This document shows positions 9,872-63,376 of a DNA stretch of 64,000 nucleotides, piece by piece. Source of the DNA: an uncultured Gemmatimonadaceae bacterium (GTDB lineage Bacteria; Gemmatimonadota; Gemmatimonadetes; Gemmatimonadales; Gemmatimonadaceae). A model generated the notes under the pieces. That model saw only the letters and a list, made by a program, of their open reading frames with translations, had not been told where the DNA came from and made no database searches. The stretch's first letter is position 1, and every line of letters begins with the position of its first letter. Both the position numbers and the translations under genes were made by a program. The stretch is from positions 32,001-96,000 of the forward strand of contig CAWBOC010000005.1 of the NCBI GenBank assembly GCA_963790305.1, in the 5' to 3' direction.

Positions 9872-9960
9872 AGAAGCGGTTTTCAACGCGCAGGACGCGG
9901 AGGACGCGGAGGCATTACCCTCTGCGTCCTCTGCGTCCTCTGCGTTCAAAGGTCCGTTCT
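9872..9960. repeat. Tandem-unit palindrome, family E (GGACGCGGA / TCTGCGTCC 9-mers)
   Basis: aacgcgcaggacgcggaggacgcggagg-cattac-cctctgcgtcctctgcgtcctctgcgtt. Confidence 0.85.
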
Positions 9961-18831: not shown

Positions 18832-18928
18832 TCGAGGTAGTCGAGGTCGTCCAGGTGCTCGAGGTGATCGAGGCGAGGCAAGACGTTCCCTCGATCACCT
18901 CGAGCAACGTCGCCACCCTCGACCACCT
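18826..18928. repeat. Tandem-unit palindrome, family C copy 1 (GTCGAGGTN 9-mers)
   Basis: Arms around core gacgttccctcgat shared with 49275 and 53535 copies. Confidence 0.85.
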
Positions 18929-18961
18929 TCTCCACCGTGGCATCTCCAGGAGAACCCACCC

Positions 18962-19934: not shown

Positions 19935-20078
19935 TGCGCCACGAGCCCGAACTGCATCACCACAGAGGCACAGAGGACACAGAGAGCACCAACAACGAAG
20001 CCTTTTCAAAAGCTCGTGCAATTGGGGTTCTCGGTGCCCTCTGTGCCTCTGTGGTGATGCAGTCCGGCTCGTTGCGCA
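19935..20078. repeat. Tandem-unit palindrome, family A copy 1 (CACAGAGG units)
   Basis: tgcgccacgagcc..catcaccacagaggcacagagg...cctctgtgcctctgtggtgatg..ggctcgttgcgca. Confidence 0.9.
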
Positions 20079-29988: not shown

Positions 29989-30071
29989 GCGCTAAGGGCG
30001 CTAGAGGCGCTAAGGGCGCTGAACTGCTCTCCCCTTAGCGCCCCTAGCGCCCCTAGCGCCCCTAGCGCCCT
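29987..30071. repeat. Tandem-unit palindrome, family D (GGCGCTAAG / CCTAGCGCC 9-mers) inside the operon
   Basis: gcgctaagggcgctagaggcgctaagggcgct-loop-ttagcgcccctagcgcccctagcgcccctagcgccc. Confidence 0.88.
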
Positions 30072-30277: not shown

Positions 30278-32072
30278 CGTTCGCTGGGTGGTCCTCGTCG
30301 GGCTTACCGTGGTCGGCGTCTCCGTCGCGCTCGCGGCACGGGGCGATCGCAAGCCCGCGGAGAGCGTCGGCCCGCGGCGGTTCGCGGGGTCGACCACCGT
30401 CATCCCAATGCCGTCGATCCTTCCTCCCGCGACGCTCTCATCGCCGGTGCGAGTGGCGCTCGTGCGCGATCCGGCCGCCGCATCGTACTTCACCAAAAGC
30501 GCGTCCTACGATTCGATCATCGATCGCTGGACGACGACGCTGCAAGCGACCGGCGCCGACGTGCGCGTGGTCGCGCCCGCCGAGATCGGGTCGAGTAGTG
30601 CCCGAGTACTCGTCATTCCTTCGGCGCATTGTCTGAGCGTCGCCACACGCGAGGCGATCGATCGCGCCGGCGCGCGCGGTCAAGGGTTGGTCATCACCGG
30701 CGCCATCGGCACCAAGGACGCGCGCTGCCGCCCCATTGGCTACGGGCTCCTCGTCGCGCTCACCGGCGCGTCGCGCGTCGAGACGATCGAGACGCGCGAC
30801 ATTGCCTACGTCACATTCCCGAACGGCAGCGCGCTCGCGATTGGAATTCCGCCTGGGACACGCCTCGAGCTCGATCCCGCGCCCTACGTGGCGCTGCGCC
30901 GCGCGGGGCGCGACGCGTTCTTTTCGTCGTTCGCGCTGCGACCCGAGCCGGCACGTGGCGTTCAGCTGGTCGATGGCGCCGTGGTTCGCTCGCGATACGC
31001 GAGAGCCCCGGTGGCATACTGGAGCTTCGAGCTGACCGGCGTGAATGATCTGCCCTGGGATCGAACGATCGCGCAGCTGCTGGTGCGCAACGCCGTCGCC
31101 TGGGCTGCGCGCATTCCGACGGCCGAGCTCGAGCCATGGCCGGAGGGAAAGCGCGCCGCGGCGGTGCTGGCACAAGACGTCGAGGACCAGTTCGCGAACG
31201 CCGAGTATGCACTCGATTCGCTGCGCGCGGCCGGCGTCCGAGGAACGTACTTTCTGACGTCGGAGCTGGCCCGGCGACACGAGCGCCTGACGAGAGCGAT
31301 CGCGGAAGAGGATGAGATCGGCACGCACAGCGAGAACCATCGCTTGCTCGGCGGCGAGCCCGCTGATGTCCAGCGCCGCCGCCTCGCTCTCACGCAGGTT
31401 CACCTGCGCGATCTGCTCGGCGCGCCGGTGGCCGGGCTGCGTCCTCCGGAGGAACAGTTCGACAAGGCGACGCTTGCCGCCTGGATCGAGGCGGGGGGCA
31501 CGTACGTGTTCGGCGCCAACAATTCGAGAGCGGCGGCGCCCGAGCTGCTCGAGGTGAACGGCGACACGATCGTTCTGCTTGGTCGCGCCAACGTCAATGA
31601 CTTCGACGCCGCCAGCCTCGCCTCACGGGGCAGCCTGGACGAAGTCGTGAAGGAGTATCTGGGTGAATACCAGAAGGTCCGCGCGCTCGGGGGACTCTAT
31701 CTGCTGAGCTATCACTCGCAGCTGCTCGCGCGTCCCGAGCTCGTCCCCGCGCTCGCGCGCATCGCCCGCCGCATCCACGCCGACACCGCGGTATGGCTCA
31801 CGACCGCGAGCGACGTCGTCGACTGGTGGCGCGCTCGCGCCGCGGTGACGACTCGCGCAACCCGCGTCGACGCACGTGGGCTCCGGGTCGACCTCCGCAA
31901 CACCGGTCGCGACACGGTGCGCGGTCTGGTCGCGCGCGTAACACTCGGCGACGGCGAGCGAGTGTCCGGCTCCGCACGTGCGCTAAAGTCGGAAGCGGGC
32001 ACGCTGCGTTTCGTCGTTCCGCCGCTGCCGCCGGGCGCCGAGCGGTCGTGGAGATTTGCGATTTCCAACTAG
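30258..32072 (+). CDS. Polysaccharide deacetylase (NodB/CE4-like), multidomain, exported
   Basis: QDVED, GTYF, IGTHSENH, LRPP, SYH motifs. Confidence 0.82.
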   Translation: MMTPRGSVRWVVLVGLTVVGVSVALAARGDRKPAESVGPRRFAGSTTVIPMPSILPPATLSSPVRVALVRDPAAASYFTKSASYDSIIDRWTTTLQATGADVRVVAPAEIGSSSARVLVIPSAHCLSVATREAIDRAGARGQGLVITGAIGTKDARCRPIGYGLLVALTGASRVETIETRDIAYVTFPNGSALAIGIPPGTRLELDPAPYVALRRAGRDAFFSSFALRPEPARGVQLVDGAVVRSRYARAPVAYWSFELTGVNDLPWDRTIAQLLVRNAVAWAARIPTAELEPWPEGKRAAAVLAQDVEDQFANAEYALDSLRAAGVRGTYFLTSELARRHERLTRAIAEEDEIGTHSENHRLLGGEPADVQRRRLALTQVHLRDLLGAPVAGLRPPEEQFDKATLAAWIEAGGTYVFGANNSRAAAPELLEVNGDTIVLLGRANVNDFDAASLASRGSLDEVVKEYLGEYQKVRALGGLYLLSYHSQLLARPELVPALARIARRIHADTAVWLTTASDVVDWWRARAAVTTRATRVDARGLRVDLRNTGRDTVRGLVARVTLGDGERVSGSARALKSEAGTLRFVVPPLPPGAERSWRFAISN

Positions 32073-32192
32073 GAGCTAGGAGTCAGGGGTCAGAGGGTGT
32101 CAGGGAAGAGGTTTCAGGAGTCGCGAGAGCCGTTCGCCTCGAACCTTCAACCTGACACCCCCTGACCCCCTGACTCCCGACTCCTGACCCCT
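32069..32192. repeat. Family B palindrome copy 1 (AGGRGTC heptamer arms), gene-less
   Basis: aggagctaggagtcaggggtcag...cctgaccccctgactcccgactcctgacccct. Confidence 0.9.
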
Positions 32193-32235
32193 CGTTCTTC
32201 GTGAGACGGTGCGGGGAATGCGTAACGTCTGAAGC

Positions 32236-33219
32236 ATGACCGCCATTCGTCCCGTCGCGCGCGGGCCCCATATCGAGACCCCGGAGGAAGCGCAGGAGCG
32301 GCTGCGGCGGGAGGTTCACGCCGGGCTTCGCGCGAATCCGAAGACGCTGCCGCCAAAGCTCTTTTACGATGACACCGGTGCGCGCCTGTTCGAGGAGATC
32401 ACCAAGCTCGACGAGTATTATGTCACGCGCACCGAGCGCGAGATCATGCAGGCACACGCGGCGGAGATGGCGGCGCTCATCGGGCCGAATGCGCTTGTCA
32501 TCGAGCCGGGAAGTGGCGAGGCGCTCAAAGTTCGCGTGCTGCTCGATCATCTCGAGAGTCCGGCCGCTTACGTGCCCATCGACATTTCGGCGGAGCAGCT
32601 CGCCCGCGTCGCGCGCGAGCTCACTGAGGAATACCCGACCCTGGACGTCATCCCGCTCGAGGCCGACTTCACCCGCGGGCTATGTCTTCCCGACCTGCCC
32701 GACACGACACGCCGTGCACGACGGGTCGCGTTCTTTCCCGGCTCGACGATCGGCAATCTCCATCCTCCGCAGGCAGTCGCGCTTCTCCGCGAGATCGCAC
32801 GCGTCGTTGGGTCCGGCGGGGGACTGCTGCTCGGCGTCGACCTGCGAAAGGACCCTACCATCCTCCATGCGGCGTACAACGACGCGAGACGCGTCACCGC
32901 CGCATTCAACAAGAACGCGCTGGTACGGCTCAACCGTGAGTTCGGTGCGACCTTCGACGTCGATCGTTTTCGGCACTACGCGTACTACAATCCGGTCGCG
33001 AATCGGGTCGAGATGCATCTCGTCAGCCTCGAGACGCATGAGGCAGAGGTCGATGGCGAGCGTTTCCTCTTCGAGCAGGGGGAGCCGATCTGGACGGAGT
33101 CGTCCTACAAGTATTCCCCCGCCGAGCTCGAGGGCTGTGCGCGCGAAGCTGGTCTGGTACTGCGGAAGAGGTGGCACGACCGACGCCGCTGGTTCATGGT
33201 GGCGTTCTTTGAGACATAG
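32236..33219 (+). CDS. egtD: L-histidine N-alpha-methyltransferase
   Basis: PPKLFYD..G..LFEEIT.LDEYY.TRTE, GSTIGN, AYND, TESSYKY. Confidence 0.93.
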   Translation: MTAIRPVARGPHIETPEEAQERLRREVHAGLRANPKTLPPKLFYDDTGARLFEEITKLDEYYVTRTEREIMQAHAAEMAALIGPNALVIEPGSGEALKVRVLLDHLESPAAYVPIDISAEQLARVARELTEEYPTLDVIPLEADFTRGLCLPDLPDTTRRARRVAFFPGSTIGNLHPPQAVALLREIARVVGSGGGLLLGVDLRKDPTILHAAYNDARRVTAAFNKNALVRLNREFGATFDVDRFRHYAYYNPVANRVEMHLVSLETHEAEVDGERFLFEQGEPIWTESSYKYSPAELEGCAREAGLVLRKRWHDRRRWFMVAFFET

Positions 33220-33318
33220 GGGTGTCAGGGAAGAGGTTTCAGGAGTCGCGCGAGCCGTTCTCCTCCAACCTTCCCCCTGACACCCCCTGATTCCTGACCC
33301 CTGACTCCTGATCCCTAG
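33217..33318. repeat. Family B palindrome copy 2, direct repeat of copy 1, left arm truncated
   Basis: 31 nt identical to 32095-32125 (gggtgtcagggaagaggtttcaggagtcgcg), similar thereafter. Confidence 0.9.
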
Positions 33319-33845
33319 TCTATCCGTGCCTTCCGCACGACGCTCCAGCTGCCGTTCCGCCTTACGAGCTGGTAGGCCTGCTCGATCCGGAACCGATTGT
33401 GCTCGCCGGTCGCTGGCGTGTCGTACCGATCCGCCAGCAGGTGAGTCTGCACGGAGTCGCCGGCCATCGCGAACACCTCCGAGAAGCGCACGACATAGCC
33501 GGGGAGGTCCGCTCGGCACACCGGCGTTCGCGTAGGAGCTCGCCGCTCCGGGCTGCACTCCCCTTTGGTGACGCCGGTGCCGCGCAGGGCGGCGCGCACG
33601 TCGGTACCTAACGCGTCGCCGGGGCCCTCGCCACCCACGCGGCTGAGCATCGTCGTGTCGACGAGAAGCGACAGCCCGGGATCGAGATCGAAGGCCCCTC
33701 CGAGCGAGGCGGCGTAGATCTTCGCCCGCTCAGTCGCCGATAGCTGTGCGACCACAAGACCGCGCCCGCGCGCGTAGCTCGCGTCCTTGGCGCAGCCGAG
33801 GACGAGCACGAGAAGAAGAACCTTTCGAAACGAGGGTGAGCTCAT
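33315..33845 (-). CDS. Hypothetical lipoprotein
   Basis: Lipobox VLGC. Confidence 0.65.
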   Translation of the reverse strand: MSSPSFRKVLLLVLVLGCAKDASYARGRGLVVAQLSATERAKIYAASLGGAFDLDPGLSLLVDTTMLSRVGGEGPGDALGTDVRAALRGTGVTKGECSPERRAPTRTPVCRADLPGYVVRFSEVFAMAGDSVQTHLLADRYDTPATGEHNRFRIEQAYQLVRRNGSWSVVRKARID

Positions 33846-33901
33846 CTAGGATTCGACGACCGAGCGGCTGGCAGGGTCAACTACAACTGCGTACTCCTCA
33901 A

Positions 33902-34601
33902 ATGCCAATAGCTCTCATCACCGGTGCCACGCGGGGGCTTGGGCGCGCGCTTGCCTTCGACTTCGCGCGCGCGGGATACGTGGTCTACGGCACGGGGCGG
34001 AACGAGACATCGCTTGCCACGCTCGCCACGGAGGCCAATGACGCGAAGCTCAACATCCGCCCCCTCCGCTCAAATGCCGCTACCGAAGAGGGGGCCGAGG
34101 CGATCCTCGAGCGACTCGAATCAGAATGCAGCACGCCTCGACGTCGTGATCCATAATGCCGGTGCGCTCGGCGACCGCGTCGAGTTGGCGAAGTACCCGC
34201 TCGACACGTGGGACGAGGTAATTGCTACGAACGTCCGCGGTCCCTTTCTCCTTACGCAACGGCTGCTGCCAACGCTCGCGCCCAACGCCGCGGTGATCTT
34301 CGTCTCGAGCGGTATCGTCGAGCAGGCGCGGCCGCGGTGGGGTGCGTACTACGTCTCGAAAGTGGCCGTCGACGCCGTCGCCGCAACCTATGCCGTCGAG
34401 CTGAAGGCACAGGGAATCCGAGTGTTCATCGTCAATCCGGGCCCGCTTCGCACGGAGATGCGCGCCGACGCGTTCCCGAGCGAAGACCCGAAGTCAGTCC
34501 CAGCCCCGGAGGACCGCACCGGCGTGTTCCTGTGGCTCGCGCGTAAGGCGGCGATCGAGCTCACGGGGAAGAGGTACGAGGCGGAGGAATTCCGGGGTTG
34601 A
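33902..34601 (+). pseudogene. SDR oxidoreductase (YciK-like), frameshifted near 34130
   Basis: TGATRGLG in one frame; LDVVIHNAG, YYVSK, NPGPLRT in another. Confidence 0.8.
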
Positions 34602-34602
34602 G

Positions 34603-34743
34603 TTCTTGGCGCCACGAGCCGGACTGCTATCACCACAGAGGCACAGGGGCACAGAGAAGGGCGAACTACTGCAGCACTAGTTCGCCCTTCTCTGTGCCCT
34701 CTGTGCCTCTGTGGTGATAGCAGTCCGGCTCGTGGCGCAAGAA
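34603..34743. repeat. Family A palindrome copy 2, near-perfect, between convergent genes
   Basis: About 65-bp stem gcgccacgagccggactgctatcaccacagag...ctctgtggtgatagcagtccggctcgtggcgc. Confidence 0.93.
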
Positions 34744-34746
34744 GCG

Positions 34747-35595
34747 CTACTCAATGTTCCCCAACGCCCACGCCGCCATCCGCCGCACTTCCGGATCACG
34801 GTCCTCACGAAGCAACGCCGTGAGCGCCGGGATTGCGGCCGGGTCCTCGATCTCGCCCAGGGCCCACGCCGCGTTGATACGCACTAGTGGCTCCGCGTCC
34901 TTCAACGTGCGCTCGAGCGCGGGGATCGCGCGCGAATCCTCGATCTCGCCGAGCGCCCACGCCGCCGCAGCGCGGACCGAGGACTCCCGGTCTTCCAGCG
35001 CGCGCGTCAGCGGATCGATCGTGCTCGGATTCTCGGCGAAGCGCAATCCGACCGCGGCTGCCTCACGAGTTATCGGGTTCTCGTCGCGCAGCGCCGTGAC
35101 CAGCGTCTGGACGGCCGCGTCCTGCTGCGTGCGTCCGAGGAGGGGCGCGACGAATCGGCGAACGCAGGGATCAGGATCCCCGAGCGCGGCGCGCAACGGG
35201 GCGATCACTTCCCGTCCCTTCGGCGAGCTCGCCGCGAAGCGCACCAGGTCCATGTCCCCAGCGCTGCGCGCACGCAGCGGCGTCGCCGGACCAACGTACT
35301 GCCAGTTGCCGTTCCACATTGCGCCGCGCGAAGCGAGCTCGCAGAGAATCGGGTTGGCATTGCGCACCGCGGCGATGAGTGCCGCCACGTTCTCCGCATC
35401 GTCCTGCGACGCCGCCGCCGTCGCACGCATCGGCGTGCCTTGATCCGGCGTCACGATCTCGTCCACGACCACGAGCGCTTCACCCATGATCACGGACCGC
35501 GCGGCCCGCGGAGCCACCGCGACGGCAATGGCGCCGGCACTAATGACCAGCGCCGCGACGACCAGCGGCGTGGCCGCTCCAGTTCGCGTTCTCAT
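34747..35595 (-). CDS. Exported HEAT/PBS-lyase repeat protein
   Basis: Hydrophobic N-terminus; about 5 repeats, three of the AAWALG(E/N)IE type. Confidence 0.85.
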   Translation of the reverse strand: MRTRTGAATPLVVAALVISAGAIAVAVAPRAARSVIMGEALVVVDEIVTPDQGTPMRATAAASQDDAENVAALIAAVRNANPILCELASRGAMWNGNWQYVGPATPLRARSAGDMDLVRFAASSPKGREVIAPLRAALGDPDPCVRRFVAPLLGRTQQDAAVQTLVTALRDENPITREAAAVGLRFAENPSTIDPLTRALEDRESSVRAAAAWALGEIEDSRAIPALERTLKDAEPLVRINAAWALGEIEDPAAIPALTALLREDRDPEVRRMAAWALGNIE

Positions 35596-38049
35596 TTACC
35601 GTTTCCCCAATGCCTGGGCCGCGATTTTCCGCACTTCCGGATCCGCATCCTTCAGCAGCTCCACCAGCACTTCGACGGCGGCCGAATCCTCGATCTCCGA
35701 GAGTGCGTGCACCGCGGCGTAGCGCAGCGCATTGTCCTGTCCACGCGCCAGCACGGCCAGTACGCCGACAGCTGCCGGATCACCGATCTCGCCAAGCGCG
35801 TGCGCCGCGATCTTCCGAACTTCACGATCCTGGTCACGCGTGGCTTCGATCAGCGCCGGCGGCGCCTCACCGCTGAGGTCGATCTCTCCCAGCGCCCACG
35901 CCGCCTTCCGGCGAACGCCGACGTTCGCGTCCGACAGCGCCTTCGACAGAGCGGCGACCGCCGTCGCATCCTCGATCTCGCCAAGAGCCCATACCGCCGT
36001 CTCGCGCACCTTGGGATCGCGATCCCCGATTGCTGCCGCCAGGGCCTCGACCGCGCGTGGGCTCTCGATCTCGCCTAACGCCCACGCAGCCTGGTGCCGA
36101 ATTTCGGCGTTCTCGTCCTTCAGGAAGGGCAACAGGTGCGGCACGCCATTGGGTGACTCGATCTCGCCCAGCGCCCACACGGCCGTCTTGCGCACCTCGG
36201 GGCTGGAATCCTTGAGCGCGGCGCCCAGCGCTTCGACGGCGGTGGCGCTCTCGATCTCGCCTAACGCCCAGGCGGCCATCCGCCGAACTTCCTCATCTTT
36301 ATCGGAACGAAGGGCATCCGAGAGCGCCGGCACACCGGCCGCGTCCTCGATCTCACCGAGCGCCCACGCCGCCATGCGACGCACTTCGACGCTCTCGTCC
36401 GACCGCAGCGCCCGACTCAGCGCTTCGACGGCGCGCGGATCCTCGATACCGCCCAGGCCCTCGGCGGCCGCGAGCCGAACGAGCGGGTCCGCATCACTCA
36501 GCGCCGCTGACAATCCGGCCACGGCGCGCTCGCTGACACGCGAGTCCTGCTTATCCTGCCTGTCCTGGTGTTGCTGCCTCGACTGCTCGCGCGACATCGG
36601 CGCCGGCGGCTGTGGGGGCTGCGGAACTTGCTCGGCCTCCGGAGCCTGAATCTCAAAACGGAACGCCATGTCGCTCGCGTAGTTTTCCGCGACGTTCTTC
36701 GCCGTCTCGAGACTCGCGGTCACGTTGCCGACGATCTCGTTCCTCAGTGAGCCAAGATCCACGCCGAGGTTTTCGAACGCCGACTTCACGGTCTCGGCTA
36801 CGCCCAGGCCTTCGCCTTCGCCTTCGCCGACGCCGATTCCGGTGCCTTCCCCGCTACCCGTGCCCTCATCGTAGGCGACCGTTTCCTCGGCAGCCGCATC
36901 GTTCGCATCGCTGACCGGGGCGGGCGCCATCGCCGCCAGGGGCATCGCGATCGCCGCCACGAACACCGCGACCGCCAACGAGCGGACACGCGACGGCGCG
37001 CGCCGCGGGCTGATCGGATCGAGGATCGCGAGCAGGCGTCCTTCGAAGTCCGACCGCTGTGCCATTGGCAACGCCACCGCCGGCGACCGCGAGGTCCCCG
37101 CGTTGCGCACGATGTCGAGCAAGTCATCGGCGTACGTGGATGCCGTCATCCCGGAGCGAATCACGAGATCGTCGCAAGCACGCTCGCACTCGTCCCGCAG
37201 CTTGCGCGCGGCGCGCCACACGAGCGGATTCATCCAATGCAACGCGCACGCAATGCGTGACACGAGGCATGTCGCCACGTCATTCCGACGGACGTGCGCC
37301 AGCTCGTGCACGAGGACGGTAAGGCGGCGCTCCTCGCTCCACGACGTCGCCACCGGCGGCATGACGATCGTTGGGCGCAGAATGCCCAGCGTCACCGGCA
37401 TGCCGACGTCGGTGCTTTCATAGAGACGGACGGTGCCGCTTACGCCCGCCATCTCCTGCGCATCGCTCAACAGCTGACGCCACGACGGGTCGCGGACCGG
37501 CACTGCCCGGCTGACGAGCATGCGCGCCGAGATCGCCCCGATCGCGAGACGCACCAGCAACGCGATGGCAATGATGATCCACAGGGTGACGAAGCCTTCC
37601 GCTGGCGAAATCGCCGCGACCGTAGCGACCGTGCACCGCGAGAACAGCGGGCAGGCTTCGGCTGCGGGAAGCGCCGGATCGCTCGTGCCCGACACCAGGC
37701 GTGCCGCGAGCTCCTCGGCATTGGGAAGCGCCGCGTCATTGCTGGCGAAGACGGCGCGCTTGGGCCGCCTCGTCTCTGTATTCTCCTCAGGGGATGCGGC
37801 CGGCGCCGGCGGCGGCGTCACCTGCTCCACCGCTGGCGCGGGAACGGGCACCACCTCGAGACGGGGCAGCACCGCCGAGAGGACGGGAAGCGCGATGAGC
37901 ACCACGATGCCCGCGGCCCACGCGACATGCCGCGTCGCGGCCGAGGCGCCACGCATGAGTCGCGTGACAACGAAAATCGCGATGAGGAGCAGGGCGCCCT
38001 TTGCGCCCGTGTCGATCATCGTCGGGATCCAGCTCACGAAGCGCTCCAT
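35596..38049 (-). CDS. BlaR1/M56 metallopeptidase with C-terminal HEAT repeats
   Basis: HELAHVRR.D, W.NPL.W, ERACD; about 10 HEAT repeats after last TM. Confidence 0.92.
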   Translation of the reverse strand: MERFVSWIPTMIDTGAKGALLLIAIFVVTRLMRGASAATRHVAWAAGIVVLIALPVLSAVLPRLEVVPVPAPAVEQVTPPPAPAASPEENTETRRPKRAVFASNDAALPNAEELAARLVSGTSDPALPAAEACPLFSRCTVATVAAISPAEGFVTLWIIIAIALLVRLAIGAISARMLVSRAVPVRDPSWRQLLSDAQEMAGVSGTVRLYESTDVGMPVTLGILRPTIVMPPVATSWSEERRLTVLVHELAHVRRNDVATCLVSRIACALHWMNPLVWRAARKLRDECERACDDLVIRSGMTASTYADDLLDIVRNAGTSRSPAVALPMAQRSDFEGRLLAILDPISPRRAPSRVRSLAVAVFVAAIAMPLAAMAPAPVSDANDAAAEETVAYDEGTGSGEGTGIGVGEGEGEGLGVAETVKSAFENLGVDLGSLRNEIVGNVTASLETAKNVAENYASDMAFRFEIQAPEAEQVPQPPQPPAPMSREQSRQQHQDRQDKQDSRVSERAVAGLSAALSDADPLVRLAAAEGLGGIEDPRAVEALSRALRSDESVEVRRMAAWALGEIEDAAGVPALSDALRSDKDEEVRRMAAWALGEIESATAVEALGAALKDSSPEVRKTAVWALGEIESPNGVPHLLPFLKDENAEIRHQAAWALGEIESPRAVEALAAAIGDRDPKVRETAVWALGEIEDATAVAALSKALSDANVGVRRKAAWALGEIDLSGEAPPALIEATRDQDREVRKIAAHALGEIGDPAAVGVLAVLARGQDNALRYAAVHALSEIEDSAAVEVLVELLKDADPEVRKIAAQALGKR

Positions 38050-38050
38050 T

Positions 38051-38437
38051 TTACCGTCCCTCCTTCTTGGCCTTACCGATCCGATCCGAGAGCCGCTCGA
38101 GTTCGGCGGGGGTGAGATTGGCGTCAGACATCTGCACGAGGGCTACGAGCGCCTGCTCGGCAGACCCATCGAAGAACGTGTGCACGAGATGCTTGAGCGC
38201 GGCGAACCCCGCTTTGTGGGTCGGGATCGCCGGCAGATAGACATAACGGGGCCCGTCCTGTTTGTGCTTCACGAGGCCCTTGTCCTCCAGGACGCGAAGC
38301 GTGGCGCGCACCGCCGAGTAGCTGGGCGGGTCGGGCATCCGCTCAATGACTTCGTTGACGGTGGCCTCACCGCTCTGGTAGAGCGCGTCCATAATCTCGC
38401 GCTCTCGGCGGGGCAGCTTGGTTTGAGGCAGGATCAT
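38051..38437 (-). CDS. BlaI/MecI/CopY family repressor
   Basis: L.RREREIMDAL, YSAVRATLRVLEDKG, FFDGS. Confidence 0.93.
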   Translation of the reverse strand: MILPQTKLPRREREIMDALYQSGEATVNEVIERMPDPPSYSAVRATLRVLEDKGLVKHKQDGPRYVYLPAIPTHKAGFAALKHLVHTFFDGSAEQALVALVQMSDANLTPAELERLSDRIGKAKKEGR

Positions 38438-38459
38438 GAGGAATCCGGGGCTGTGGAAA

Positions 38460-38514
38460 TGCTAGATATCTAGCAGGCTGCTAGCTATCTAGCAGGGGCC
38501 TGATTCCTAGTCAA
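38460..38514 (-). promoter_or_regulatory. Double palindromic operator and putative promoter of the blaI-like operon
   Basis: TGCTAGATATCTAGCA (38460-38475, perfect) and TGCTAGCTATCTAGCA (38479-38494); minus-strand TTGACT at 38514-38509. Confidence 0.8.
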
Positions 38515-38533
38515 GTAAGACTTGTGTAAACCG

Positions 38534-39055
38534 AGGGGTCAGGAGTCAGGAGTCAGGGATCAGGGGGTTGGAGGTGAATGGGATCGGTCCCGTCGAGTGG
38601 GAGAGATCGCTTACCCTGAACCCGTCCCTGATCCCATTCCCTCGTGATCCGCAGCTATCGCGACCTTCACGTCTGGCAGCTCGGGATCCGCCTGGTCATC
38701 GAGTCCTACAAGGTAGGACAGCAGCTGCCAGCGGATGAGCGCTTTGGCCTAACAGCTCAAATCCGAAGGGCCGCTATATCCGTACCAGCCAACATCGCCG
38801 AGGGTCACGGGCGCTCGTCGCGCGGAGACTATCGCCACCACGTCTGGATCGCCGCCGGCTCGCTTCGGGAACTCGAGACCCTTTTCGAGATCCTCATCGT
38901 GCTGAAATACCTCGACGCGAAATCACTGGAGAGGGTAAGAGGGCTCTGCGATGAGCTCGGCCGCATGCTGACACGACTCGCCAAGCGCCTCGAATCACCA
39001 GCTCCCCGCCGTTCCCTACAACCCCCTGATCCCTGACCCCTGACTCCTGACACCT
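38534..39055 (+). mobile_element. Putative element: four-helix-bundle gene enclosed by 37-bp heptamer-built inverted repeats (family B)
   Basis: Left arm 38534-38570, right arm 39019-39055, 35/37 complementary; mobility is inferred, not shown. Confidence 0.6.
38644..39036 (+). CDS. Four helix bundle protein (23S rRNA-IVP / TIGR02436, Avd-like)
   Basis: SYRDLHVWQ, LP..E.FGL..QIRRAA.S.P.NIAEG.GR, GSL.E.ET; GTG start. Confidence 0.93.
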   Translation: MIRSYRDLHVWQLGIRLVIESYKVGQQLPADERFGLTAQIRRAAISVPANIAEGHGRSSRGDYRHHVWIAAGSLRELETLFEILIVLKYLDAKSLERVRGLCDELGRMLTRLAKRLESPAPRRSLQPPDP

Positions 39056-39057
39056 AG

Positions 39058-40545
39058 TCAAATGCGCCCAAACCTCACCCCCGACACCTCCACGGCGACC
39101 GCGCGATTGCCGTCGAACTCAAAACGCGCCACGCTCCCCGACCCCGTGAGCTCCACCCGAAGCGCATTCTGCGCACCATCAAAAACCTCCACCGCGCTCC
39201 ACGCCTCGCCGGCGCGTGCCTCGAGCTTGCCGTTCACGACGCTGAACACGAGACGCCCGTAGAGCTCGTTCTCGTACGTACCCGCATACGCCTCCAGCGG
39301 GAAGGGCAGCGTTTGCGGACGTGCAGCGCGCCGCGCGCGGTCGGTTGCCACACGCTCACGGAACCCTTCGGCCTCGGTTCGAAGACGCGCGAGCGAGTCG
39401 GCGGAGAATCCCGCTCCATTAATGAGCCGCGAGTATACCGCGCGCGCGGCGAGCTCGGCCAGCGCCGAGCCGGTTCCGTTCTCGTTCGTCATGACGATCA
39501 CGCCGATCCGTCGCTGGGGCATGAACGACATGCTGGTGCTGAATCCGAGGAAGCCGCCGCCGTGCGTAAGAACCGTATCGGTACCGAGCGTGCCGATCTG
39601 CCATCCAAATCCGTAGCCGTTGAGCAACAGCCCACGAGCGTTTGCGCGGACAGTCGCCTGCCGCCGGTGCGTCTCGGCGATCGCGCTCGCCGGGAAGACG
39701 CGGCGGCCGTCGACGACACCGCCGTTGATGTGCGCCTCCAGCCAGCGTGCCATGTCCACGGCGCTGGAGACGAGACCTCCTGCCGCCTGCATGTTCGCAT
39801 CACCCTTGCTGTACGGGGCGCGCGCGAAGCCCGTCGGCTCCCGGCGATAGGGCTGCGCCAGCCGCTCACGCGGCATGCGAGAGACGTACGCGCTCGTGCT
39901 CGTCATGCCTAACGGCTGAAAGATCGTACGCTGCAGGACGTCCCGCCAGCTTGCGCCGGTCGTCGCGTCCATGGCAAGCGCGGCGATGTTGTAGCCGATG
40001 TTGCCGTAGACGTAGTCCCGTCCGGTCTTGGCGGCCGGGTGCGAGGGGAGGAGCGCGACGAGCCGGTCGTTCGTATGCTCGCCGCTGAAGGCGGTGCGAA
40101 AGACGATCGGCCCATCGTTGTCGATGCCGTGCGTGTGCGAGAGCAGCGACCGCAGCGTGATGGAGTCGGGGCTGAGCGGCGCCTGGAGCTTCGCCGCGGG
40201 CAGGTAGCGGCTGAGCGGCGCGTCGAGATCGAGACGGCCCTGTTCATCGAGCAACACGGCGGCGAGCCCGGTGAACGATTTGGTCGTCGAGGCGATGTAG
40301 AAGATCGTCTCCGGCGTGACCGGGCGTTGCGCCTCGACGTCGGCCCACCCGAAGCCCTTCGCGTAGATGACCTGTGTGTCGCGCACGACCGCGATCGACA
40401 TCCCCGGTGCGAGGTCGAGGGCGAAGAGCGCGGTGAGCGTGGAGTCGAGAGCAGCGGTCGTCGACGTGGTCGAGGTCGTCGAGGGAGTCGAGTACTGCGT
40501 GCCGGCGCAGCCGAGCACGAGCGAGAGGAAAGCCAGGCGAATCAT
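39058..40545 (-). CDS. Serine hydrolase (beta-lactamase fold) lipoprotein
   Basis: ASTTK, LSHTHG, YGN, HGGG; lipobox VLGC. Confidence 0.9.
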   Translation of the reverse strand: MIRLAFLSLVLGCAGTQYSTPSTTSTTSTTAALDSTLTALFALDLAPGMSIAVVRDTQVIYAKGFGWADVEAQRPVTPETIFYIASTTKSFTGLAAVLLDEQGRLDLDAPLSRYLPAAKLQAPLSPDSITLRSLLSHTHGIDNDGPIVFRTAFSGEHTNDRLVALLPSHPAAKTGRDYVYGNIGYNIAALAMDATTGASWRDVLQRTIFQPLGMTSTSAYVSRMPRERLAQPYRREPTGFARAPYSKGDANMQAAGGLVSSAVDMARWLEAHINGGVVDGRRVFPASAIAETHRRQATVRANARGLLLNGYGFGWQIGTLGTDTVLTHGGGFLGFSTSMSFMPQRRIGVIVMTNENGTGSALAELAARAVYSRLINGAGFSADSLARLRTEAEGFRERVATDRARRAARPQTLPFPLEAYAGTYENELYGRLVFSVVNGKLEARAGEAWSAVEVFDGAQNALRVELTGSGSVARFEFDGNRAVAVEVSGVRFGRI

Positions 40546-45377: not shown

Positions 45378-46385
45378 ATGACAATTGCCCTATACCGCTC
45401 CACCACTCTTGTCCTCGCGCTTCCGGTGCTCTCGGCCTGCAGCACGATACGGGAGATGTTCCCGTCGCGTGAGGAAGTCTTCAAGCCGATCCCGGTGACC
45501 ATTGGGGACGTGCGCGTGATCGGCGAGGACACGGTCTACGTGCTCGAGTCCCCGGAGTACGAGCTCGTCGCACCAATGCGCGAGCTTCTGCCCAATGCAC
45601 GCAAGGCCCTCGATCACACCGCGCGCGAATACCGTCGCGTCTTTGGCGACGATCCGCAAAAGATCGTGGTCGAGCTGCGCGCGGTGTCGCGCGACCGCGT
45701 GGCGGACGGCTGGATCCCCGACACGGTAGAGCCCAACGAAGGGCCACGCCGCGCCGTCGCTCCCGCCATCGTCCCGGAGAAGCGCTCATCGCGTGCGCCG
45801 GTGGCTCCCGCAGGATTCCTGATGATGCGCGCCGCGCGCGCCTGGCTGCTTGCCCGCGCCGATTACCGCGTTGGCCGCTCACCCTCGGCGCCCACCGCAC
45901 AGGTTCGTTTTGGCGACGACGCACGCATCCCCGACTGGGTCGAGGATGCGCTCACCGAGCTGATCGGCGGATCACCGGCGCAGGAGATGTACGTGGCGCG
46001 CCTTGCTGAACGCGCGGAAACGGTGTCGTTGCGCGATGTGCTCGAGGCGACGCGACCGGAGCCCACGAAGGACGCGCAGCGTCGCGCTCAGCTTCCGCCG
46101 ACGTCAGCAACGCGACCTGCCGGCGGTGTCTTCATGGGCGGGCCAGCGAGCCGCGACCGGGGGAAGCTGGAGGGCGCGGAGCTCTTCCGCGCGCAGGCGG
46201 TCGCCTTCGCGATCTTCCTCGCCGAGCACGAGGGCCGCGAGTTCCTCGGCACCGTCACCGACCGCCTGCTCTCGGGCGAGTCCGCCGAGACGGCGCTCAC
46301 CGCCGCGACGACGTTGCCTGACGATTTGGCGGGGATGGAGAAAGCGTGGAAGGATTGGCTGAGAAAGCTGGCTGCGCGGAACTAG
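45378..46385 (+). CDS. Hypothetical lipoprotein (possibly inactive peptidase MA-like fold)
   Basis: Lipobox LSAC; IPDWVEDAL resembles PxWxxEG but no HExxH. Confidence 0.6.
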   Translation: MTIALYRSTTLVLALPVLSACSTIREMFPSREEVFKPIPVTIGDVRVIGEDTVYVLESPEYELVAPMRELLPNARKALDHTAREYRRVFGDDPQKIVVELRAVSRDRVADGWIPDTVEPNEGPRRAVAPAIVPEKRSSRAPVAPAGFLMMRAARAWLLARADYRVGRSPSAPTAQVRFGDDARIPDWVEDALTELIGGSPAQEMYVARLAERAETVSLRDVLEATRPEPTKDAQRRAQLPPTSATRPAGGVFMGGPASRDRGKLEGAELFRAQAVAFAIFLAEHEGREFLGTVTDRLLSGESAETALTAATTLPDDLAGMEKAWKDWLRKLAARN

Positions 46386-46518
46386 GAGTCAGGAGTCAGG
46401 GGTCAGGGATCGGGGGAGTTAGGGAAAGACAAGGGGAAAGGAGAGCGAAGCTGTTCTCCTTTCCCCTTTGTTTGCCCTGACTCCCCCTGATCCCTGATCC
46501 CTGACTCCTGGCGCCTAG
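46382..46518. repeat. Family B palindrome copy 3, gene-less, between convergent stops
   Basis: ctaggagtcaggagtcaggggtcagggatc...gatccctgatccctgactcctggcgcctag. Confidence 0.92.
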
Positions 46519-49121: not shown

Positions 49122-49274
49122 GAAGGGAGCTCCCCGAGTGATTCGTGGCCGCGGACAATGGGTGTATCGTCGCGCTGGCCCCGGCTAATCCGGGGATGCG
49201 ACAACCGGGGGTGCTAGAAGGTTGGCACCCCCTTGGAGCTAAAGCGTCTGTAAGTCGTAAGGAATGTGAAAAAG

Positions 49275-49368
49275 AGGTCGTCGAGGGTGTCGAGGTCGTC
49301 GAGGCAATCGAGGGAACGTCGTCGCCTCTCCTCGATCACGTCGACGACCTCGACATCCTTGATCACCT
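49275..49368. repeat. Family C palindrome copy 2 (core reversed)
   Basis: Core atcgagggaacgtc is the reverse complement of the 18826 and 53535 cores. Confidence 0.85.
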
Positions 49369-52083: not shown

Positions 52084-52207
52084 GCAACGAGCCGACTGCC
52101 ATCACCACAGAGGCACAGAGGGCACAGAGGAGGGCGCACTGCAGGCTGCAGTGCGCCCTCCTCTGTGCCCTCTGTGCCTCTGTGGTGATGCAGTTCAGGC
52201 TCGTCGC
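52084..52207. repeat. Family A palindrome copy 3
   Basis: catcaccacagaggcacagagggcacagaggagggcgcactgcag-g-exact reverse complement. Confidence 0.93.
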
Positions 52208-52842: not shown

Positions 52843-53538
52843 ATGCACATGGCCATGCTGACCGTCATCGCGCTGGCCGCGGTCATCGTCGTCGAAGAGG
52901 AAGGCTCGCCTCGTGCTGAGTCGCCGGTCTCCGTCCCGCGCTCCCGCGCGGTCGTGATCGACGGGAACATCGAAGAGGCCGAGTGGCGCGGAAGTGCGGT
53001 GGTGAGACGACCGGAGGGGGAAATGCTGCTGCGCCACGACGGCAAATACCTCTACATCGGCGTCCGCGCGGCGCGACGCGGCTTCCCCAGCGTGTGCCTC
53101 ATGCGCGGCAACACCGTTCGCGTCATGCACGCCTCGTTCGCTCTCGGCAATGTGATCTACGCGAAGACGAACGCAACGTGGCGCCTGGGCGCGCCGTTCG
53201 AGTGGGAGCCGCCTGCGCGCGCGGTCGGCAGCGATCGGGATCCGCAGCGCGCCAAATTCCTCGCTGAGCGCGGATGGCTCGGAAGCACCGTGCCAATGGG
53301 AAACCCGCGGCATGCCGAGATACAGATCGCGCTGGATCAGCTCGACCGACGCGACCTGCGCATTTCACTGGCGTTCCTCATGGAAGACCAGGGGCGCGGC
53401 GAAGAGATCGCCTCATGGTCTCGGCTCGGCGCCCGCCCCGCACGCGACGGCTGCGCCAACGAGCGGCTCGTGCGCGGCTACGCCCCGGAGCGGCTCACGT
53501 TTCGGAAGAATGCCTGGACGCGTGTGAAGCTGACGTAG
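52843..53538 (+). CDS. Hypothetical exported protein (CBM9/DOMON-like N-terminal motif)
   Basis: VIDG...EAEW...HDGKYLYIG. Confidence 0.6.
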   Translation: MHMAMLTVIALAAVIVVEEEGSPRAESPVSVPRSRAVVIDGNIEEAEWRGSAVVRRPEGEMLLRHDGKYLYIGVRAARRGFPSVCLMRGNTVRVMHASFALGNVIYAKTNATWRLGAPFEWEPPARAVGSDRDPQRAKFLAERGWLGSTVPMGNPRHAEIQIALDQLDRRDLRISLAFLMEDQGRGEEIASWSRLGARPARDGCANERLVRGYAPERLTFRKNAWTRVKLT

Positions 53539-53616
53539 TCGAGGGTGTCGAGGTGATCGAGGAGAGCAACGACGTTCCCTCGATTACCTCGACGACCTGG
53601 ATTACCTCGAGTACCT
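53535..53616. repeat. Family C palindrome copy 3, between convergent stops
   Basis: gtcgagggtgtcgaggtgatcgagg..gacgttccctcgattacctcgacgacct. Confidence 0.85.
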
Positions 53617-55748: not shown

Positions 55749-55864
55749 GCATAACCACAGAGGCACAGAGGGCACAGAGGACGGCGAACTGCAAAGGCCT
55801 TTGCAGTTCGCCGTCCTCTGTGCCCTCTGTGCCTCTGTAGTTATGCTCCTTGGCTCGTTGCGCA
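55749..55864. repeat. Family A palindrome copy 4
   Basis: gcataaccacagaggcacagagggcacagaggacggcgaactgcaaaggcctttgcagttcgccgtcc...; outer ggctcgttgcgca on right only. Confidence 0.92.
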
Positions 55865-56311: not shown

Positions 56312-56422
56312 AGACGTCAGATATCAGAATTCAGAACTCAGATAAAAACATACGGGGAGCCAATACTGGCTCCCCGTTGTCGTTTCTGACATTCGAATTC
56401 TGAATTCTGATATCTGACGTCT
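56312..56422. repeat. AT-rich heptamer palindrome, family F (TCAGAAT / ATTCTGA)
   Basis: agacgtcagatatcagaattcagaa..cggggagcca-atac-tggctccccg..aattctgaattctgatatctgacgtct. Confidence 0.9.
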
Positions 56423-63280: not shown

Positions 63281-63376
63281 GGAGTGAGGAGTGAGGAGTG
63301 CGGATTGTGATGCGGAATAGAACCATTCGATCAATCGCATTCCTCACTCCTCACTCCTCACTCCTCACTCCTCACT
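63273..63376. repeat. Heptamer palindrome, family G: (AGGAGTG)x4 ... (CCTCACT)x5
   Basis: Perfect units; both convergent stop codons lie inside the units. Confidence 0.93.

Follow-up and report, generated by a model that had tools for sequence, protein, structure and literature searches.

To our knowledge, PF05635 is a large protein family that has had no known function since its discovery in rRNA intervening sequences; we know of no catalytic activity in the family, and the only characterised relative known to us is Avd, which binds nucleic acid in retroelements. Among the intervening sequences (IVS), that of Coxiella is described as 428 nt long with a 28-bp stem that is cut by RNase III, and the same source describes a Xanthomonas relative of the protein as a homopentamer of four-helix bundles (PMC4990558). 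The structures 4DWL and 2GSC are reported to be homologous (PMC10053308). Paired tandem octa- and heptanucleotide arrays are known from Geobacter metallireducens, where they are listed, in classes 1-3, as 'putative global regulator binding sites' (PMC2700814); neither 'four-helix' nor 'S23' occurs in the main text of that paper.

Here we set beside these systems a gene of the PF05635 family that is enclosed in a hairpin element, in a stretch of 64,000 nt from an uncultured Gemmatimonadaceae bacterium that was analysed as a whole (the window). In the literature searched, mostly outside subscription journals, we found no link between PF05635 or GxxExxY genes and flanking tandem-repeat arms or gene-less hairpin families, and for that literature the first-pass annotation's description of the system as undescribed stands.

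A gene-bearing hairpin element beside blaI

The element at 38534-39055 is 522 bp long and is made up of two arms, a 69-nt leader and one gene. Its neighbours are a blaI-like repressor gene, with blaI/blaR1-like genes nearby, and a beta-lactamase-family serine-hydrolase gene. Gene-less copies of the same arms had been noted at 32069, 33217 and 46382, and all three are present, the second without its left tandem arm. The features are as follows.

32069-32192, no strand: hairpin without a gene, subfamily A of this arm family
33217-33316: gene-less copy of the same arm family, left tandem arm missing, inner sequence in common with the 32069 copy
38534-38574, no strand: left terminal arm, about five tandem heptamers (AGGGGTC AGGAGTC AGGAGTC AGGGATC AGGGGGT) plus 6 nt
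38575-38643, plus strand: leader, 69 nt, with its own nested hairpin at about 38576-38639
38644-39036, plus strand: four-helix-bundle gene, 130 aa, intact, PF05635 / TIGR02436
39015-39055, no strand: right terminal arm, complement of the left arm
46382-46516: hairpin of this arm family that lacks a gene, flanked by a convergent gene pair

The arms, for which a pairing of 35 of 37 positions had been claimed, pair at 38 of 41 nt each in an inverted-repeat search (93% complementary, 440 nt apart), and TRF calls both as 4.7 copies of a 7-mer. When 38525-39065 is folded as RNA, the long closing stem appears in both the MFE and the centroid structure (-245.3 kcal/mol, z = -6.35), a fold equalled by none of 100 shuffles, and the nested leader stem is likewise present in both. 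The 3' half of the leader resembles degenerate right-arm units. Searching the window with a 17-nt two-unit pattern, at three mismatches or fewer, returned 24 matches against 0.10 expected, with a maximum of 2 in 100 shuffles. The right arm ends 2 nt from the stop codon of the serine-hydrolase gene (39058-39060, minus strand). An Rfam scan found no rRNA match in 31900-39200, which places the element outside 23S and 16S rRNA helices, as the first-pass annotation had it; in the window the scan matched microRNA-precursor and further generic hairpin models, in every case below threshold. A promoter scan of the element returned no sigma-70-like sites. Neither a T-run after the stem nor a terminator-like site was found at the element, so that the stem does not qualify as an intrinsic terminator, and the sole terminator-like site found, at 38401-38414, is outside it.

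Within the loop there is a single long ORF, 38644-39036; it begins with GTG, and its last codons and TGA fall inside the right arm, which bears out the earlier description of a loop holding a leader and a 130-aa gene. Its product scores 115.8 bits against PF05635 (cut-off 33.8, E 1.3e-33) and 111.6 bits against TIGR02436 (cut-off 24), and keeps all 15 columns that are at least 80% identical in 77 intact relatives (W11, Q39, R42, S46, N50, E53, G54, S73, E76 and others). Among solved structures, 2GSC, an entry with five chains, is the nearest relative (E 4e-19); the Avd models match under their cut-offs (bAvd 22.5 bits against 40, DivGenRetAVD 29.5 bits against 80). With a pN/pS of 0.10-0.19 against seven relatives, the gene is under strong purifying selection in five genomes. 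The uncommon codon usage ascribed to it is borne out only in broad terms: the gene has a GC3 of 0.70, and all ten cargo genes span 0.59-0.72, compared with a mean of 0.81 for 3312 called genes, a comparison that is biased because the crude gene caller behind the reference demanded a GC3 of at least 0.72.

A comparison for filled and empty alleles had been suggested at the blaI/serine-hydrolase junction, and both occur: the junction is filled in the congeners G008, G004 and G005, and in G002 it holds neither arms nor gene. A copy at a second locus (G008, contig C54) is 88% identical over the element, with homology that starts and stops exactly at the arm ends. On these sequence comparisons, 38534-39055 is one discrete, insertable cassette. 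At the second locus, G008 carries this locus-1-type cassette, and G004, G005 and G006 carry a 72-75% identical cassette with similar arms. In G000, the exact site at which four congeners have a heptamer-armed cassette is taken by a hairpin that has no gene and belongs to an unrelated family of 9-mers, an arrangement that arm homology alone does not account for. The locus-1 empty site in G002 is too diverged for a target-site duplication to be read; many copies end in TA...TA, where the TA is itself part of the palindrome and thus ambiguous as a target-site duplication, and the GCGC at both junctions of an element at 34634 is itself palindromic.

Sequence constraint is uneven along the element. 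Compared with four orthologous or paralogous copies, the left arm shows 0-1 differences per 41 nt; between copies, the right arm shows 1-5 per 41 nt, and the leader differs at 3-17 of its 69 positions. Taken together, the arms differ at 15 of 328 positions and third codon positions at 176 of 492, so that the arms evolve at roughly one eighth of the rate of those positions.

Of 22 sequencing runs listed, 20 contained part of the stretch (best DNA share 0.47; the single RNA run 0.05). The assembled contigs of the RNA run, at that share, show no ends, include some that contain arms and none over 38594-38863, and are uninformative on expression or processing. Contig joints that skip 449-472 nt were considered as products of excision and rejected, their sides being short (20-35 nt); they are best read as gene-less family members of other loci or organisms.

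Armed genes and gene-less hairpins in the genus

All six PF05635 genes in this genome lie between inverted tandem arrays of 7- or 9-nt units, with six different units, and arrays of the same kind stand beside each of four GxxExxY nuclease-fold genes, in varied layouts. The arrangement is common beyond this genome. At PF05635 loci from 41 related genomes, flanking inverted arms were found in 98 of 112 cases, compared with 3 of 112 and 6 of 112 in mirror-image controls; 14 of the 112 have no inverted arms, and in 28 of the 98 the arms are not tandem. GxxExxY loci from many phyla, collected with a single protein as query, have flanking inverted arms in 36 of 59 usable cases, against 0 and 1 in controls. 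Furthermore, the arm unit co-varies with the protein phylogeny, as the first-pass annotation had suggested that it might: on a quick tree, the repeat period changes 6 times, compared with 20.4 +/- 1.2 times (minimum 16) in 500 shuffles. Seven stop-holding rows were left out of the tree; these are intact genes whose match ran beyond the natural stop. An apparent orientation bias, with the G-rich arm upstream of the gene, was dropped, since a G-rich 5' arm reads identically on both strands. The system had been described as having no transposase or reverse transcriptase, and across this genome (94% complete) there is no RVT_1 match at E <= 0.001 and no Y1_Tnp match, the latter model matching in 6 of 14 control genomes.

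Several of the armed genes are broken. Relative to intact orthologs, IVP3, IVP4 and IVP5 are each split over two frames, and IVP6 is probably interrupted too, which would make four of the six PF05635 genes frameshifted in this assembly; one of the four GxxExxY genes also looks interrupted. These frameshifts may be either real decay or assembly error. The families of IVP3, IVP4, IVP5, IVP6 and the interrupted GxxExxY gene still have satellites (41, 25, 14, 67 and 8), and thus an intact master is not needed for the satellites' present existence.

Gene-less hairpins are numerous. An inverted partner within 3 kb was found for 356 of 1654 tandem arrays, compared with 3 and 9 in null orientations, and the genome holds about 295 distinct gene-less hairpins. 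Families were defined by nearest-unit assignment with a margin rule, single-linkage clustering having over-merged them; in this way 235 of the 295 were matched to the unit of a cargo gene, of which there are ten, and about 24 of the remainder are of the CACAGAGG type and were left out only by the margin rule. The ten cargo genes fall one each into ten families, an outcome met in none of 200,000 random draws. The AGGRGTC family, to which the window element belongs, has about 63 gene-less copies in the genome. The order of unit variants in gene-less copies is that of the cassette arm, and the same outer arms enclose three kinds of inner module, one of them with the gene. The conserved centre of subfamily B, CTCATCNGATGAG, was examined as a ribozyme core, and none was recognised either by Rfam scan or by inspecting the copies; an Rfam scan of three further hairpin loci gave only sub-threshold matches to generic hairpins.

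To compare the distribution of genes and hairpins, arm matches were counted forward and reverse in nine congeneric genomes for four arm variants. GGGCCAA arms number 127-250 in the five genomes with the GGGCCAA-armed gene and 0-5 in the other four; GGGTSCTCA arms number 173-402 in the four genomes with the gene and 0-28 in the other five; a paralog-specific variant occurs 14 and 23 times in the two genomes with that paralog and 0-2 times elsewhere. For AGGAGTC arms, the counts are 114-334 in five genomes with an IVP1-clade gene and 0-87 in the rest, where G001 and G002 have 87 and 75 AGGAGTC-type matches with no cognate gene detected. An arm family is abundant mainly where the matching gene is present, cleanly for three variants and in graded fashion for AGGAGTC, in counts that are not independent because the nine congeners are kin. 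Were the gene-less copies descended in common from the cassette, such a distribution would arise even if the protein played no part. The one-gene-per-family pattern and this co-distribution across nine congeners strengthen the likeness to RAYTs and REPINs that had been proposed for the element.

Interpretations of the hairpin families

Our leading interpretation, held tentatively and with slightly less than even confidence, is that of a master-and-satellite hairpin repeat system, RAYT/REPIN-like in its working but with a different protein. The window cassette would be the gene-bearing master of the AGGRGTC hairpin family. Each four-helix-bundle gene would travel with arms of its own unit and period, as would the genome's GxxExxY genes, and the gene-less hairpins would be bearers of the same outer arms around other inner modules, placed right behind stop codons genome-wide. 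The protein, an Avd relative whose closest solved relative is reported to be a homopentamer, would most likely recognise the repeated units of the folded arms, and this recognition would promote copying or retention of the hairpin by host replication, repair or nuclease functions. Binding of the arms, a dependence of the hairpins on the protein that goes beyond mere descent from a cassette, and each stage of the copying are inferred. Against this interpretation stand the frameshifts in three and probably four of the six PF05635 genes in this assembly, the AGGAGTC-type matches of G001 and G002 with no cognate gene detected, the 14 loci with no inverted arms and the 28 with non-tandem ones, the unrelated hairpin at the G000 site, the uninformative RNA contigs, and arm mismatches that give no wobble signal.

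A broader version of the same idea is more doubtful, and on balance somewhat unlikely. It would make non-transposase proteins (the Avd-related, pentamer-forming four-helix bundle and, in parallel, the GxxExxY PD-(D/E)XK protein) the specificity factors of a widespread class of hairpin repeats, each reading the 7-, 8- or 9-nt register of its own arms and driving their copying with neither a reverse transcriptase nor a conventional transposase. On that view, the rRNA intervening sequences with an ORF would be those members of the class that have landed in rRNA helices, and the unexplained paired arrays of heptamers and octamers from other phyla would be their satellites.

Could the genes instead be passengers? 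The hairpins would then be spread by another agent, such as replication slippage with template switching or an unrecognised enzyme, and the four-helix-bundle and GxxExxY genes would be selfish cargo of the loop, as in rRNA helices, going through cycles of invasion, decay and loss; the gene-less copies would be deletion derivatives or pre-existing targets. We consider this unlikely, and it is the alternative that fares best. The same kind of hairpin is occupied by two unrelated cargo proteins, three inner modules have common outer arms, several cargo genes are frameshifted and cargo GC3 is atypical, all of which suit a homing gene; decay is also reported for the Coxiella IVS ORF (PMC4990558), and the swap at locus 2 of G008, where a locus-1-type cassette takes the place of the 72-75% identical one, fits replacement by recombination within the arms. 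However, the gene of the element is under strong purifying selection in five genomes, and conservation of the arms far exceeds that of silent sites. Moreover, a mere passenger accords poorly with the one gene per family (0 of the 200,000 draws) and with a repeat period and unit that track the protein clades.

The position of the hairpins suggests a different and quite improbable explanation, namely that they are host cis-elements at gene ends, acting in RNA stability, termination or nucleoid structure, with the four-helix-bundle protein as their trans-acting binder and the gene inside its own site as a case of autoregulation, not mobility. The hairpins abut stop codons at a median distance of 6 nt; convergent gene pairs flank 99 of 266 intergenic hairpins, compared with 398 of 1993 background spacers, and divergent pairs flank only 27 of 266, compared with 446 of 1993. 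The sequence of the arms is conserved beyond pairing alone, and the paired arrays of Geobacter metallireducens have been interpreted as sites of unidentified global regulators (PMC2700814). Yet hairpins are gained and lost between congeners at orthologous sites with the neighbouring genes unchanged (the hairpin at 46382-46516 is absent at the same site in G002 and G003), unrelated families occupy one site in different species, the copy number of a family runs from 0 to 400 inside one genus, and no T-run follows the stem of the window element.

Finally, we hold it very improbable that the element is purely an RNA element of the IVS type, with the long stem as an RNase III site as in 23S rRNA, cleavage freeing or destroying the enclosed mRNA and parting the hydrolase and blaI transcripts, and the gene-less hairpins as look-alikes: the protein family, size class and stem-plus-ORF design are those of the 428-nt Coxiella IVS and the closing stem does form in the RNA fold, but the element is outside rRNA, mismatches in the arms give no wobble sign of pairing as RNA (151 sense-strand G.U vs 139 A.C, p = 0.52, hence no excess), and the gene-less copies are not look-alikes because they share the exact order of arm variants.

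For the master-and-satellite interpretation, the genus and the locus together provide a hypothesis that can be tested at the bench: that each protein recognises the tandem-repeat hairpin flanking its own gene. Natural controls exist within the genus: a single genome has six protein-arm pairs that differ in unit, alleles occur both filled and empty, and between congeners a hairpin family goes from hundreds of copies to none, depending on whether the gene is present.

Comparison with known systems

In its shared terminal inverted arms, its variable inner modules (three kinds, one with a gene) and its presence/absence polymorphism, the family resembles MITEs and the autonomous transposons with terminal inverted repeats. 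It is unlike them in that the arms are internally tandem-repetitive and the sole ORF is the 130-aa four-helix-bundle gene, with no transposase. The protein shares a homologous four-helix-bundle fold with the Avd of diversity-generating retroelements and gives weak matches to the bAvd and Avd models; unlike Avd, its scores are under the model cut-offs, no reverse transcriptase was found in the genome, and the neighbours are blaI/blaR1-like and serine-hydrolase genes.

The Geobacter metallireducens arrays come close in form: runs of four or five tandem repeats, of 7 or 8 nt, are paired on opposite strands with variable spacing, in tens of intergenic copies, and one class consensus there, MTYCTGA, matches the TTCTGA-type unit of one family here (PMC2700814). 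In contrast to the interpretation given here, those arrays have been interpreted as sites for IHF/HU or a regulator (PMC2700814). If the link between protein and arms is functional, it would account for the intergenic hairpins of this lineage, which run to hundreds in each genome, and for similar arrays in other phyla.

Like the ORF-bearing 23S rRNA intervening sequences (the helix 45 IVS of Coxiella burnetii with S23p, and those of Leptospira and Haemophilus), the window element encodes a PF05635 protein, has terminal inverted repeats that pair into a long stem enclosing a leader and a single small ORF, and shares a total length of about 430-520 nt, a sporadic distribution and an atypical GC content (PMC4990558). 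However, it stands between protein-coding genes and not in an rRNA helix, its arms are tandem arrays of a 7-nt unit, and it has dozens of gene-less satellites. Furthermore, its gene is under purifying selection, whereas the Coxiella ORF is reported to be decaying (PMC4990558). A functional link would connect the intervening sequences of rRNA with repeat elements as a general class.

In the REPIN-RAYT system, as here, each repeat family has a single gene, which lies between inverted copies of that family's repeat, and tens to hundreds of gene-less hairpin-forming copies that are intergenic and near gene ends (PMC3116915, PMC3337134), and in both systems gene and repeat family co-occur across related genomes (bioRxiv 10.1101/2021.07.10.451892). 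The protein here is a four-helix bundle (its counterpart in the sister case is small and of the PD-(D/E)XK type) and not an HUH Y1 transposase of the IS200/IS605-like kind, and the arms are tandem arrays of 7-9-nt units and not a single REP palindrome. Should the link prove functional, these hairpin families would be a second, mechanistically different example of a long-lived repeat system of the RAYT/REPIN type.

The cassette and its alleles

The element at 38534-39055 and its neighbours are laid out as follows:

35596-38049, minus strand: BlaR1-type M56 peptidase gene with HEAT repeats
38051-38437, minus strand: blaI-like repressor gene
38534-38574: left arm, 41 nt, 4.7 copies of an AGGRGTC-type heptamer (TRF)
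Between left arm and ORF: 69-nt leader, folding as a small hairpin of its own
38644-39036, plus strand: ORF of 130 aa, final codons and TGA inside the right arm
39015-39055: right arm, 41 nt, 4.7 copies of an AGGRGTC-type heptamer (TRF)
39058-40545, minus strand: beta-lactamase-family serine hydrolase gene, its stop codon 2 nt from the right arm

The inverted arms that the first-pass annotation had described around a four-helix-bundle gene are borne out (93% complementarity over 41 nt), as is its account of the loop, which holds only the leader and the single 130-aa ORF, ending within the right arm. By profile search the protein is a clear PF05635 / TIGR02436 member, and it scores under the cut-offs of both Avd models. 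Its nearest solved structure is 2GSC from Xanthomonas (E 4e-19), whose entry has five chains; that protein has been described as a homopentamer of four-helix bundles (PMC4990558). A site scan of the element found no promoter-like or terminator-like sites inside the cassette, and Rfam gave no family at threshold for it or for the further hairpin loci scanned. The two-unit arm pattern has 24 matches in the window, against 0.10 expected.

Relatives were searched with 2 kb around the element and the junctions were then read; here G000 is the window's own genome and G001-G008 are related genomes. At the blaI/hydrolase junction (locus 1), the entire cassette is present in G008, G004 and G005 at 87-88% identity; in G002 both the arms and the gene are absent, although the blaI operator and the next 20 nt are retained; and in G003 synteny stops after blaI. 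An extra copy, 88% identical to that of the window, lies on contig C54 of G008 (locus 2), with similarity spanning the first base of the left arm to the last bases of the right arm. The counterpart of locus 2 in G000 is C7:251646-251739, between the stop of a gene and the start of its downstream, same-strand neighbour, and at exactly that place G000 has a gene-less hairpin from an unrelated 9-mer family; G004, G005 and G006 have cassettes there that are 70-74% identical, with related heptamer arms. The cassette is a discrete unit, present in some genomes and missing from others, and the filled and empty alleles which the annotation had envisaged do occur at this junction.

The surroundings have features of their own. 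The M56 peptidase is fused to about 300 residues of HEAT repeats (six HEAT_2 stretches), an unusual sensor architecture. Two adjoining 17-18-nt palindromes of TGCTAGATATCTAGCA type (38460-38496), directly upstream of the gene for the blaI-like repressor, are conserved in G002, G003, G004, G005 and G008 and are probably operators of that repressor. A 16-nt direct repeat, CCTGAYNCCTAGTCAA, at 38499-38514 and 39046-39061, comprises the right-arm end plus 6 nt, with its other copy 20 nt ahead of the left arm; at 38499-38514 the three filled congeners have CCTAGTCAAG and the empty G002 differs ahead of GTCAAG. This repeat may be what is left of an earlier hairpin, or an insertion trace.

Gene-less hairpins and cargo genes of one genome

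The gene-less copies of the arms that had been noted in the window were all found, one as half a hairpin, together with inverted tandem-array pairs of other units (7-11 nt):

32069: gene-less AGGRGTC-family hairpin
33217: gene-less AGGRGTC-family hairpin, half
46382: gene-less AGGRGTC-family hairpin
8798-8881, 9886-9945, 18825-18936, 19961-20053, 49274-49313: other-unit pairs
52106-52184, 53538-53616, 55756-55838, 56324-56410, 63273-63377: further other-unit pairs

Intergenic hairpins occur about once per 4-5 kb of the window. At 32069-33316, two AGGRGTC-family hairpins that share inner sequence flank a gene of about 1 kb (roughly 32237-33217); gene and hairpins are absent in G001 and G006, where two convergent neighbours are a few bases apart. 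The hairpin at 29989-30070 has four GCGCTAAGG-type units in each arm, and its site in G008 and G002 holds a plain stem-loop (GGCGCTG, GAAC, AGCGCC, T-run) with the innermost unit in common, so that arrays may expand or collapse in place. A 141-nt palindrome at 34603-34743, 95% self-complementary and with CACAGAGG-type arrays at its centre, has GCGC on both junctions and is not at the orthologous site of G001 and G006. As we read the frames, both convergent neighbours of the hairpin at 46382-46516 terminate in CTAG at its two ends; the hairpin thus supplies both stop codons.

Across G000 (4.31 Mb, 13 contigs, 66% G+C), 356 of the 1654 TRF arrays with a period of 6-12, 2.5 or more copies and a length of 18 nt or more had a reverse-complement partner (at least 80% identity, within 3 kb), against 3 and 9 in mirror-image nulls and 73 direct partners. 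The arms were less than 150 nt apart in 296 of these pairs and 150-200 nt apart in none. Merging overlaps left 295 gene-less hairpins. Judged by our own crude gene caller (3312 genes), 99 of them lie in convergent, 140 in tandem and 27 in divergent settings, a further 28 being within called genes and 1 at the edge of a contig. The corresponding numbers of background spacers (40 nt or longer) are 398, 1149 and 446. The median distance from array edge to adjacent stop codon is 6 nt over 338 gene-end adjacencies genome-wide, in 47 of which the edge lies at most 3 nt inside the stop codon. The 5' arm is G-rich and the 3' arm C-rich in 280 of the 295 (the reverse in 6), and likewise in 87 of 95 cassette arms; as the pattern is the same whichever strand is read, the asymmetry is a genuine one of the element.

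All six PF05635 genes of G000 are flanked by inverted tandem arrays, with units AGGAGTC, GGGGAGT, GAGGTCGTC, GAGGCGCTA, GTCAGAA type and CGGAATG. The genome also has four TIGR04256 GxxExxY genes, associated with CACAGAGG, ACGCGGAGG, CCGCAGATGG and CGCGGATTG arrays, and each of them retains the D...ExK residues expected for the PD-(D/E)XK fold. One is plainly in a loop and one is at a contig end; the other two loci (C5:638651-639598 and C5:741537-742424) read left arm, gene, second left arm, loop, right arm, so that the gene is flanked by direct arm copies beside a complete hairpin.

The unit of one of these ten cargo genes could be assigned to 235 of the 295 hairpins, giving 63, 4, 41, 25, 14 and 67 satellites (gene-less hairpins with the same unit) for the four-helix-bundle genes, with 1, 7, 5 and 8 for those of GxxExxY type; some 24 further hairpins of CACAGAGG(G) type fall outside the assigned set solely through the margin rule. 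Each cargo gene has its own hairpin family, and not one of 200,000 random draws, with weights set by family size, put ten insertions one per family. The 63 gene-less AGGRGTC members are not loose arrays, their unit variants following one another just as in the cassette arm. Each has one of two conserved architectures, either a simple long hairpin (about 128 nt) or one of about 145 nt that contains two inner hairpins; with the cassette this makes three inner modules, one being the gene, on one outer-arm pair. In the 145-nt form (subfamily B; G000:C5:286950-287200 (L138), C9:828950-829200 (L139) and about 20 more), the stems of the inner hairpins vary among copies yet still pair, a conserved palindromic CTCATCNGATGAG centre lies between them, and Rfam gave no match.

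Compared with intact orthologs, three of the six PF05635 genes are broken across two reading frames, and a fourth, with one GxxExxY gene, looks interrupted too on our reading of the sequences. All five have intact orthologs in congeners:

C7:228030, interrupted cargo gene
C9:787754, interrupted cargo gene
C9:163389, interrupted cargo gene
C10:203511, interrupted cargo gene
C5:741837, interrupted cargo gene

These frameshifts are either real decay or assembly error. The interrupted four-helix-bundle genes have families of 14-67 satellites even so.

Gene, arms and hairpin family among relatives

PF05635 matches were present in 36 of 41 related genomes. From 150 listed places we took 100, leaving out partial matches, those at most 400 nt from a contig start and the weakest rows; with the six G000 loci and seven from the relative searches, and one locus without a tblastn hit dropped, the set comprised 112. 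By local alignment of the upstream flank with the reverse complement of the downstream flank (score at least 34), 98 of the 112 have inverted flanking arms, against 3 and 6 in two null orientations. Arms around other members of this protein family, as the annotation had anticipated, are thus found both in the genome and in its relatives. Tandem arms account for 70 of the 98 (period 7 or 14, n=42; 9, n=14; 8, n=11; 15, n=3), and the remaining 28 are long non-tandem inverted repeats, mostly from four genomes of other genera. Of the 98 loci, 43 have the stop codon inside the right arm; in 40 it precedes the arm (median 9.5 nt), and in 15 it falls past the arm.

A test of whether arm type follows protein phylogeny had also been suggested. 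In a quick tree of 96 rows (16 with short or stop-containing hits were left out, seven of them being intact genes whose hit extends past the natural stop), one clade of 12 (SH-aLRT 96) has 9-mer arms only, another clade of 12 mostly 8-mers, and the others 7-mers. Over 58 labelled rows the repeat period changes 6 times, against 20.4 +/- 1.2 (minimum 16) in 500 shuffles; since kin share period labels, this shows co-inheritance of gene and arm rather than co-evolution as such. Among 63 GxxExxY loci across many phyla, 59 were usable; 36 of these have inverted flanks at the same threshold (nulls 0 and 1) and 13 strong direct flanks, and as we read the loci their arm units in other phyla have a CRCRRAG-like core in common.

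Gene and hairpin family travel together in the nine congeners, which are kin with fragmented assemblies; for AGGAGTC the relation is graded, not clean.

Arm-variant counts per genome (forward plus reverse pattern matches; mirror controls 0-7)
GGGCCAA, matching gene present: G001 234, G002 169, G005 223, G006 250, G007 127
GGGCCAA, no matching gene: G000 1, G003 0, G004 5, G008 0
GGGTSCTCA, matching gene present: G003 402, G004 290, G005 269, G008 173
GGGTSCTCA, no matching gene: G000 28, G002 27, G007 27, G001 1, G006 0
Variant of the G004/G005 locus-2 paralog: G004 14, G005 23, other seven 0-2
AGGAGTC, gene of the clade of the window's PF05635 gene detected: G008 334, G000 194, G004 184, G006 182, G005 114
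AGGAGTC, no gene of that clade detected: G001 87, G002 75, G007 10, G003 0

Between the window cassette and four close copies, 15 of 328 arm positions differ, compared with 47 of 276 in the leader and 176 of 492 third codon positions. The contrast of arms with silent sites indicates that the arm sequence itself is held, beyond pairing alone, either by selection or by concerted evolution with the hairpin family. Furthermore, pN/pS is 0.10-0.19 in seven comparisons of the window gene, and its protein retains all 15 columns with an identity of 80% or more among 77 intact relatives, including a polar set (W, Q, R, S, N, E, S, E).

Mechanism and comparison with known systems

The cassette and the gene-less hairpins very probably form one family, related as autonomous and non-autonomous elements, much as the annotation had proposed in calling it a filled/empty family. 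The best single mechanism, which by analogy we put forward tentatively, is that the four-helix-bundle protein would recognise the arms flanking its own gene and that the gene-less hairpins would depend on their cognate protein, in the manner of RAYT/REPIN. A protein-driven system is weakened because interrupted cargo genes still have families with satellites, because the arms lack a sense-strand wobble signature (151 G.U vs 139 A.C) and because one site holds unrelated hairpin families in different species. A passenger or homing gene living in hairpins spread by other means is a less likely alternative, each cargo gene having a family of its own. Quasi-palindrome correction by template switching during replication occurs in E. 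coli, and arms that are highly complementary yet lack an RNA signature would be compatible with such a process too.

A regulator with its putative binding sites seems less likely again. In G. metallireducens, paired tandem hepta- and octanucleotide arrays have been catalogued and read as regulator sites, and the main text of that report does not mention a four-helix-bundle gene (PMC2700814). A purely IVS-like RNA element is improbable, the sense-strand RNA signature being absent from the arms. Finally, as the annotation had stated, the system includes no transposase or reverse transcriptase: neither a Y1 transposase nor a reverse transcriptase was found in the G000 genome, which rules out RAYT-driven REPINs and a diversity-generating retroelement.

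Two of the systems compared here are established, namely RAYT/REPIN and the rRNA intervening sequence with an S23p ORF and RNase III excision (PMC4990558). We found no literature linking PF05635 or GxxExxY genes to tandem-repeat arms or gene-less hairpin families. The window adds the one-gene-per-family pattern within a single genome, the co-distribution test within one genus, the difference in divergence between arms and silent sites, the pattern of repeat period by clade, and the frameshifted gene-bearing copies.
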